Source of the DNA: Escherichia coli
GTDB taxonomy: Bacteria; Pseudomonadota; Gammaproteobacteria; Enterobacterales; Enterobacteriaceae
Length of the DNA: 64,000 bases
Strand: one strand, 5' to 3'
Assembly: GCF_024223415.1 (NCBI RefSeq)
Contig: NZ_CP100500.1
Part shown: positions 62,965 through 64,000 of the stretch, in pieces
Position numbering within the stretch: position 1 is the first letter of the stretch
Layout: every line of letters starts with the position of its first letter
The notes under the pieces: generated by a model
What the model was told of the DNA's origin: nothing
The model's database searches: none
The model's input: the letters and a program-made list of their open reading frames with translations, nothing else
Position numbers and translations under genes: made by a program

Positions 62965-63385
62965 ATGTATCTTAAAATAAGAGACAGGCTTGGATATATG
63001 TCTGACACTGGTTCTAATTTTGAGATGACTGGAACTTTGCCGGGGCTGGAGCTTCGTAAACGTAAAACTCCTCAGGAAAAAATTGGCATTATTCAGCAGA
63101 CAATGGAGCCTGGCATGGCGGTGTCACATGTGGCGCGTTTGCGTTGTATTCAGCCCTGCCTGTTGTTTAAGTGGAAAAACAATCTCTGGAAGGAAGTCTC
63201 ACTGCTGTTGCTTCAGGAGAGGGTGTCGTTCCTGCCTCAGAACTGCCTGCCGCTATAAAACAAATAAAAGAGTTACAGCTCTTGCTGGGTAAAAAACCAT
63301 GGAAGTTTAGATCCTCAAAGAAGTGGTGGAGTATGCGCAATCGCGAAAATGGATAGCGCATGTGCCCTTGTTACCTTCGGACAAG
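62965..63385 (+). pseudogene. IS2-like (IS3 family) orfA remnant with multiple frameshifts; orfB absent
   Basis: Fragments ...RKRKTPQEKIGIIQQTMEPGMAVSHVAR..., ...[34 protein letters not shown]..., ...[14 protein letters not shown] resemble IS2 InsC in three frames. Confidence 0.6.
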
Positions 63386-63561
63386 GAATAGCCCCGGTAA
63401 GCCGTGTTCTGGGCGATACTCAGGCGGCAGTCCCTAAATGAAGGACTACCGTTAGTGAATGCAAAGCGCGTTTACCGTAAGCGTAAACTGACCGCCGTAT
63501 GTAGCCATCAGACGAGAATTGGTAACTTAGACGCCCATCTGATATAGACGGACATCTAAGT

Positions 63562-63987
63562 ATGGAATTACAGGACTGGCGAAAAGAACCTCGTAAAAAC
63601 TATTCGAATGAATTCAAACTTCGTATGGTGGAACTGGCATCACAACCTGGAGCTTGTGTTGCACAGATTGCACGTGAAAATGGCGTCAATGATAATGTTA
63701 TTTTCAAATGGCTCAGGCTCTGGCAGAACGAAGGGCGTGTTTCGCGGCGTCTTCCGGTAACGACCTCTTCTGACACTGGCGTTGAATTATTACCTGTAGA
63801 AATAACGCCGGATGAGCAGAAAGAACCTGTGGCGGCCATTGCGCCGTCTTTATCCACTTCCACTCAGACCAGAGTCAGTGCCAGTTCCTGCAAGGTGGAA
63901 TTCCGTCACGGTAACATGACGCTGGAAAATCCATCGCCAGAGCTGCTCACGGTGTTGATCCGTGAACTGACCGGGAGGGGAAGATGA
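63562..63987 (+). CDS. IS66-family accessory protein TnpA
   Basis: ...ACVAQIARENGVNDNVIFKWLRLWQNEGRVS... typical IS66 orfA. Confidence 0.8.
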   Translation: MELQDWRKEPRKNYSNEFKLRMVELASQPGACVAQIARENGVNDNVIFKWLRLWQNEGRVSRRLPVTTSSDTGVELLPVEITPDEQKEPVAAIAPSLSTSTQTRVSASSCKVEFRHGNMTLENPSPELLTVLIRELTGRGR

Positions 63988-64000
63988 TCTCACTCCCATC
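63984..64000 (+). CDS. IS66-family TnpB, 5' end only (3'-partial)
   Basis: ATG overlaps tnpA stop (ATGA); begins MISLP as in IS66 TnpB. Confidence 0.5.

Follow-up and report, generated by a model that had tools for sequence, protein, structure and literature searches.

An IS66-family element probably inserted into orfB of a decayed IS2-like element in an Escherichia coli genomic island

Introduction

A stretch of 64,000 nucleotides of Escherichia coli DNA (assembly GCF_024223415.1, contig NZ_CP100500.1), which was analyzed as a whole and is referred to here as the window, ends in fragments of two insertion sequences (IS). Their arrangement raises the question whether the two fragments are chance neighbors or whether one element has entered the other, and whether copies of the IS66 family have reshaped the island in which they lie. 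A preliminary description of the last kilobase had recognized an IS2-type orfA that can be read only across three frames and was said to lack an orfB. It was reported to be followed directly, at a distance of about 80 nt, by an IS66 terminus, tnpA, and the start of tnpB. The arrangement was headed as nested, and a second IS66 remnant located 13 kb away was taken as a sign that IS66 copies may have mediated rearrangements.

Results

Genomic setting of the locus

The last 7.1 kb of the window are 99.8% identical to the corresponding sequence of strain GF60 (from chicken meat), and the alignment continues unbroken to base 64000. A search with positions 62900-64000 as query returned a full-length match in GF60 only; in many other strains the match ends at 63477, with different sequence beyond. 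O78 strain 3 agrees with window positions 1-25000 at 100% identity and has an empty site at 63477. The flanks common to the window, GF60, and strain ECCNB12-2 are about 99.8-99.9% identical across kilobases.

The locus is part of an island module (window 37190-64000) containing CP4-like genes, a PTS/transketolase cluster, a YadA-like adhesin, and IS remnants. The chromosomal setting of this module differs between strains: in the window and in O78 strain 3 it lies downstream of gsp/yghD, in GF60 it adjoins cadC, and in ECCNB12-2 it adjoins yjgR. A tRNA scan of the whole window revealed no tRNA gene. The YadA-like adhesin gene (window 51451-52250) carries tandem repeats of about 99 nt, which lead to overlapping offset matches and to length differences between strains. 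A frameshifted transposase pseudogene of the IS110 family is located at 59439-60440, and a short ORF for a toxin of the PemK/MazF family (61 aa in GF60), followed by an ORF for a 35-aa hypothetical protein, at 62062-62363, the coordinates of all of these being carried over from GF60. Outside the module, positions 10555-25220 contain a gene cluster of defense-related appearance, as judged from the annotation of the 100% identical stretch of O78 strain 3. It codes for a protein with a TerB N-terminal domain, an ATP-binding protein, a DEAD/DEAH helicase, two large hypothetical proteins (about 1570 and 740 aa), and an AbiEii/AbiGii toxin with its DUF6088 partner.

Table 1. Coordinates of the IS-related features in the window.
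Feature	Position	Strand	Remarks
Remnant of a different IS66-family member, 255 bp	50257..50511	+	Left terminal repeat, then the 5' part of tnpA with a frameshift; truncation at 50511
IS2-group (IS3-family) remnant, left 543 bp, ISEc48-like	62934..63476	+	Ended at 63476/63477 by the probable IS66-family insertion
Left terminal inverted repeat of the IS2-like element, TGGACCAGCCCCTTGAAACGCCAGATAGTGGATGTATCTTAA	62934..62975	+	Aligns with the left end of the intact relative
orfA pseudogene, IS2-like	63025..63391	+	tblastn with IS2 OrfA and ISEc48-like OrfA; two 1-nt deletions
Two orfB fragments, IS2-like	63349..63476	+	tblastn with IS2 OrfB and ISEc48-like OrfB
Left copy of the 8-bp target-site duplication, CGTTTACC	63469..63476	+	Probably made by the IS66-family insertion
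IS66-family element, ISEc23 type (PGAP label), left 524 bp	63477..64000	+	Continues beyond 64000
Left terminal inverted repeat of the IS66-family element, GTAAGCGTAAACTGACCGCCGTAT	63477..63500	+	Agrees with the GF60 right end (reverse complement, GTAAGCGTCAACGGAGCACCGTAT) at 19 of 24 positions
tnpA, 141 aa, intact	63562..63987	+	Pfam HTH_Tnp_1, 5e-12; NCBIfam IS66_ISRel24_TnpA, 83 bits (cutoff 74)
tnpB, first 17 nt	63984..64000	+	Start overlaps the tnpA stop as ATGA

A decayed element of the IS2 group

The features of the locus are listed in Table 1. The left 543 bp of the IS2-like remnant are 91.4-91.9% identical to an intact element of 1339 bp in O111:H11 strain 8D (L003 3182-4520), which codes for an OrfA of 142 aa (Pfam HTH_Tnp_1) and an OrfB of 292 aa (Pfam rve, rve_3, and HTH_21). 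Intact elements of about 90% identity (89-92% over these 543 bp) carry the label "IS3-like element ISEc48 family"; the names ISEc48 and ISEc23 are used here as PGAP product labels. As reference for IS2 itself, IS2A of E. coli K-12 was used (insC1/insD1; L007 1761-3091), to which both the remnant and the intact relative show about 70% DNA identity (over 1.15 kb). The OrfA segments are as much as 82% identical to those of IS2, and the left terminal repeat has a CCAGA(C/T)A...TCTTAA layout in common with the IS2A termini. In NCBIfam, the intact relative matches best to "IS2 repressor TnpA" and "IS2 transposase TnpB," with scores below the cutoffs of the IS2 subfamily (199 vs. 229 bits and 414 vs. 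597 bits, respectively), and the element should therefore be regarded as IS2-like rather than as IS2. Its layout, consisting of an orfA with a helix-turn-helix (HTH) domain and an overlapping orfB of the rve-type DDE class, places the remnant in the IS2 group of the IS3 family, as judged from sequence relatedness.

The remnant has accumulated several lesions. A tblastn search with IS2 OrfA places its segments in three frames of the window (63043-63249, 63177-63296, and 63245-63388), because two deletions of 1 nt each, recognized in an indel map against the intact relative, have occurred at about 63175 and 63293. The fragment in the first frame still matches Pfam HTH_Tnp_1, and the stop codon of orfA is found at 63389-63391. 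For orfB, tblastn places aa 1-28 at 63349-63432 and aa 72-94 at 63410-63478, and a MAFFT pair alignment shows that these two fragments are separated by an internal deletion of 158 nt at about 63416. The remaining part of orfB, about 630 bp, is present in GF60 beyond the IS66-family element (L001 9118-9748), where a fragment of it scores against Pfam rve with 1.3e-06 and 29 bits; that the gathering score of 32.6 is not reached is to be expected of a fragment. If window positions 62934-63476 are joined to this part of GF60, a pre-insertion remnant of 1174 bp is rebuilt, which is 89% identical to the intact 8D element and shows further small deletions in the part past the window end. In strain AR_0085, the IS2-like pseudogene is uninterrupted; its annotation, over 1044 nt, is that of a "DDE-type integrase/transposase/recombinase" with a frameshift. 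The remnant is dead, production of a transposase being no longer possible.

IS2 generates a target duplication of 5 bp. No short target duplication was detected around the IS2-like remnant, the flanks being GTAGC on the left (window 62929-62933) and CCGCA on the right (in AR_0085). These unmatched flanks could be due either to decay or to boundaries set a few bases off, and the assignment of the remnant, which is based on homology, is unaffected.

An IS66-family element of the ISEc23 type

The terminal inverted repeats of the IS66 family are imperfect and begin with 5'-GTAAGCG. The element at the window end starts exactly at 63477 with this motif, as part of the 30-mer gtaagcgtaaactgaccgccgtatgtagcc at 63477-63506. 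Its 524 bp within the window (63477-64000) are 100% identical to a copy in O78 strain 3, so that none of the observed features can be attributed to chance, and the first 180 bp (63477-63656) are also 100% identical to a copy in O111:H11 strain 8D. The TnpA encoded in the window is identical to that of GF60 (WP_000422741.1), and an identical protein is present in many E. coli strains.

The complete element of GF60 has a length of 2532 bp, and carries genes for TnpA, TnpB, and a transposase (WP_115207935.1), which PGAP labels "IS66-like element ISEc23 family." Its gene order is tnpA, tnpB, tnpC, of which the window contains tnpA and the start of tnpB. Pfam matches were obtained for tnpB (L001 7085-7435; TnpB_IS66, 1e-36) and for TnpC (L001 7466-9079; DDE_Tnp_IS66, 1.5e-97, together with zf-IS66, LZ_Tnp_IS66, and DDE_Tnp_IS66_C), and the cutoffs of the NCBIfam models IS66_ISRel24_TnpA, IS66_TnpB, and transpos_IS66 are exceeded in each case. 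The length of 2532 bp is found in two independent copies, that of GF60 and one on a metagenome-assembled contig (L013), which is flanked by its own 8-bp duplication, TTATTTAC.

The copy in O78 strain 3 (L009 12453-14963; NZ_CP084096.1 927452-929962) lies inverted, 7.4 kb past the empty site and amid other IS66 and IS3 fragments, and is flanked by two different octamers. This copy may have been the donor, or it may be a product of recombination. An Rfam scan of positions 61500-64000 yielded, as its only result, a match to the AfaR small RNA on the minus strand (63435-63556), which spans the junction of the IS2-like element and the IS66 left end; with 25 bits against a gathering score of 100 and E = 0.14, it was dismissed as noise.

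The junction lies within orfB of the IS2-like element

The octamer CGTTTACC, present at the left of the junction in the window, is found on both sides of the IS66-family element in GF60 (L001 6570-6577 and 9110-9117) and in ECCNB12-2, a strain from chicken, and only once in the empty site of AR_0085. The latter reads ...GCGCGTTTACCGGATAATG... (in a longer reading, ...AAAGCGCGTTTACCGGATAATGAGCG...), and the filled site of GF60 reads ...GCGCGTTTACC / GTAAGCG...CGCTTAC / CGTTTACCGGATAATG, with an insert of 2532 bp (in a longer reading, ...AAAGCGCGTTTACC / GTAAGCGTAAACTG...GTTGACGCTTAC / CGTTTACCGGATAATGAGCG...). Both junctions are the same in ECCNB12-2, where an IS3-family element and ISEc45 have later disrupted the IS66 copy, and orfB resumes past the IS with the matching 8-bp duplication in GF60 as well as in ECCNB12-2. 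Intact empty sites occur in AR_0085 and O78 strain 3. Target duplications of 8 bp have been reported for IS66, and matching flanks are regarded as a sign of a simple insertion rather than of recombination between copies (PMC6778807). Because of the duplication on both sides and the empty sites in sister genomes, the IS66-family element is to be placed inside the IS2-like orfB, and the comparison of these genomes makes it very probable that it arrived there by simple transposition. As the window ends at 64000, 524 bp into the element, its right-hand junction is taken from GF60 and should be the same.

The preliminary description was therefore correct in calling the arrangement nested, in reading orfA across three frames, in the spacing of about 80 nt (the IS66 terminus starts 85 nt after the orfA stop codon), and in finding the terminus followed by tnpA, which is complete, and by the beginning of tnpB from 63984. 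Its family calls, IS2-like and IS66, agree with the tblastn, Pfam, and NCBIfam matches. It erred in denying the presence of an orfB, parts of which (aa 1-28 and 72-94) precede the junction and the rest of which follows the IS66 element in GF60, and in describing the IS66 element as directly following the IS2-like one, as it sits inside orfB and not beside it.

A variant of this reading accepts the insertion as described and assumes that the IS66 copy of the window genome was later altered beyond 64000, either by another IS or by recombination. Such events do occur, as seen from the IS3-family element and ISEc45 inside the copy of ECCNB12-2, and the inverted copy with unmatched flanks 7.4 kb off in O78 strain 3, as well as up to 43 matching places per genome, would offer the opportunity. 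However, the window agrees with GF60 to its last base, tnpA is intact, and no positive sign of a change was seen, so a later alteration appears rather unlikely.

Frequency of the insertion and target sites

Among 5426 complete E. coli genomes, a probe of 100 nt detected the filled junction in two, both of chicken origin; the probe for the empty site found 128 records at at least 99% identity. Together with the empty state of O78 strain 3, these counts suggest that the IS66 insertion represents a recent and rare polymorphism on an old and widespread remnant.

The junction might also have arisen independently in the window genome, GF60, and ECCNB12-2, if CGTTTACC in orfB were a hot spot for IS66. 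The different chromosomal neighborhoods of the island module in the three genomes would fit this assumption, as would the similar octamer GTTTTACC that precedes the older remnant at 50257. Yet the insertion has the same orientation and exactly the same nucleotide position in each case, with highly conserved flanks (see above), which agrees with one event, either inherited or transferred. Moreover, the targets of other copies are unrelated (TTATTTAC, TCAAAACC, GATACATG, TATTAATC, and GGATAAAG), and the same target sequence is unoccupied in about 128 records. Repeated insertion at the same site is thus very improbable, and a single transposition into orfB remains the preferred reading.

The likeness of GTTTTACC (window 50249-50256) and CGTTTACC (window 63469-63476), which places (C)GTTT(T)ACC directly before each of the two IS66-type left ends of the window, is probably a matter of chance, as eight other flanks show no clear consensus, albeit in a small sample. 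A possible target-site preference was also looked for with the exact left end of 30 nt in species-representative genomes, where only four loci were found, flanked by GATACATG (twice), TTATTTAC, and TATTAATC; no target-site consensus emerged among these four and the flanks of the E. coli loci. It appears improbable that IS66-family elements of this type have a weak preference for targets ending with TTTAC(C) and that elements of the ISEc23 and ISEc48 types tend to land in each other. A nesting of the reverse order is present in O111:H11 strain 8D (L003 3004-4520; NZ_CP077469.1 143462-144978), where an intact ISEc48-like element lies in tnpA of an ISEc23-type element and cuts off a left end of 180 bp, the remainder of the IS66 element being absent.

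The second IS66 piece and the question of rearrangements

The second IS66 remnant proposed earlier is real and occupies 50257-50511, although its terminal motif is the same only in part. Its repeat reads GTAAG^AACCGACC, with 4 nt deleted at the caret, and it belongs to a different family member: it is 95.6% identical to an element of strain 8D (L005 3501-3751; terminus GTAAGCGTAAACCGACC) and only 70.5% identical to the ISEc23-type element, the longest identical run being about 19 nt. An alignment of both termini, as had been suggested, identifies each of them as an IS66 left end, while the 4-nt deletion and the identity of about 70% set them apart. The annotations of GF60 and O78 strain 3 list the remnant as a partial transposase with a frameshift, and it adjoins the same transketolase gene in 363 genomes, including strains with an empty site at 63477. 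A search with ISEc48-like OrfB in tblastn gave no match around it, which discards the idea, raised by its similar flank GTTTTACC, that it might also lie inside an IS2-like orfB.

The 13 kb between the two pieces are collinear in GF60, AR_0085, and O78 strain 3, with or without the insertion. The proposed IS66-mediated rearrangements find no support, because the interval is collinear, the two pieces lack a long identical stretch, and the flanks of the element match in sister genomes; with about 70% identity between the pieces, the piece at 50257 fixed in 363 genomes, matching 8-bp flanks, and collinearity in four genomes, a rearrangement between them was rejected. The piece at 50257 would be an older, unrelated remnant that played no detectable part in the insertion at 63477.

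The initial view that the IS2-like element had been cut down to orfA, with IS66 as a chance neighbor and IS66 copies driving deletions or inversions, is hardly tenable: nothing IS2-like follows the IS66 terminus within the window, and two IS66-type left ends do lie in direct orientation 13 kb apart, but OrfB fragments precede the IS66 end, orfB resumes beyond the IS in GF60 and ECCNB12-2, a longest identical run of about 19 nt makes a poor substrate for homologous recombination, and the collinearity of the interval is independent of the insertion.

Discussion

The observations suggest a history of two successive IS events, the order and relative age of which would be as follows. An ISEc48-type element of the IS2 group may first have been inserted between a truncated gene for a PemK/MazF toxin and a gene for a TonB-dependent receptor. 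It would then have decayed, as apparent from a divergence of about 11%, 1-nt deletions in orfA and orfB, and the deletion of 158 nt. Much later, an ISEc23-type element of 2.5 kb from the IS66 family would have transposed into orfB of the dead element. The DDE transposase TnpC presumably cleaved the two strands of CGTTTACC with a stagger of 8 bp, and these 8 bp would have been duplicated during repair. Such cut-and-repair chemistry is the general mechanism of DDE transposases, and it is assumed here on this basis and because IS66 is reported to leave 8-bp duplications. About 2 kb past the window end, the second half of the IS2-like element is then to be expected: past 64000, there should be 2008 bp ending with ...GTTGACGCTTAC, then CGTTTACC and GGATAATGAGCG..., and about 630 bp of orfB ending with ...CAAGGGCAGGCTTA.

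The nesting of one IS in another is ordinary mobile-element debris and already known biology. It is routine in genomic islands of E. coli, both families are well described, and the biological weight of the case is small. Its uses are practical and modest. Annotators should join the "transposase" fragments that flank the IS66 element, which represent one pseudogene. For strain typing, the exact junction (63476/63477), rare with 2 occurrences among 5426 complete genomes, could serve as a marker to trace this island variant. With respect to the history of the island, the suggested rearrangement mechanism via IS66 copies drops out of consideration.

A comparison with known elements shows that the IS66-family element shares with ISEc23 the imperfect repeats of the GTAAGCG type, the 8-bp duplication, the gene order tnpA-tnpB-tnpC, and the ATGA overlap; no difference was found in this comparison, which uses the PGAP label and, past the first 524 bp present in the window, the copies in other genomes. 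The remnant interrupted by it belongs to the same group as IS2 of K-12 and has a similar layout of the terminal repeat, but its intact relative misses the subfamily cutoffs. With ISEc48 (again according to the PGAP label), the remnant is collinear over its whole length at 88-92% DNA identity, sharing the same terminal repeat and the orfA/orfB layout. Unlike ISEc48, the copy described here is dead, diverged by about 11%, marked by several 1-nt deletions and the 158-nt deletion, and split by the IS66 element. At about 89% identity, the remnant may represent a separate isoform or a sister IS of ISEc48. Finally, the type of event initially proposed for the island is known from the Agrobacterium plasmid pAt15955, where a deletion was mediated by identical IS66 copies and the surviving copy has non-matching 8-bp flanks (PMC6778807); at the locus described here, by contrast, the flanks match and the two IS66 pieces are only about 70% identical.
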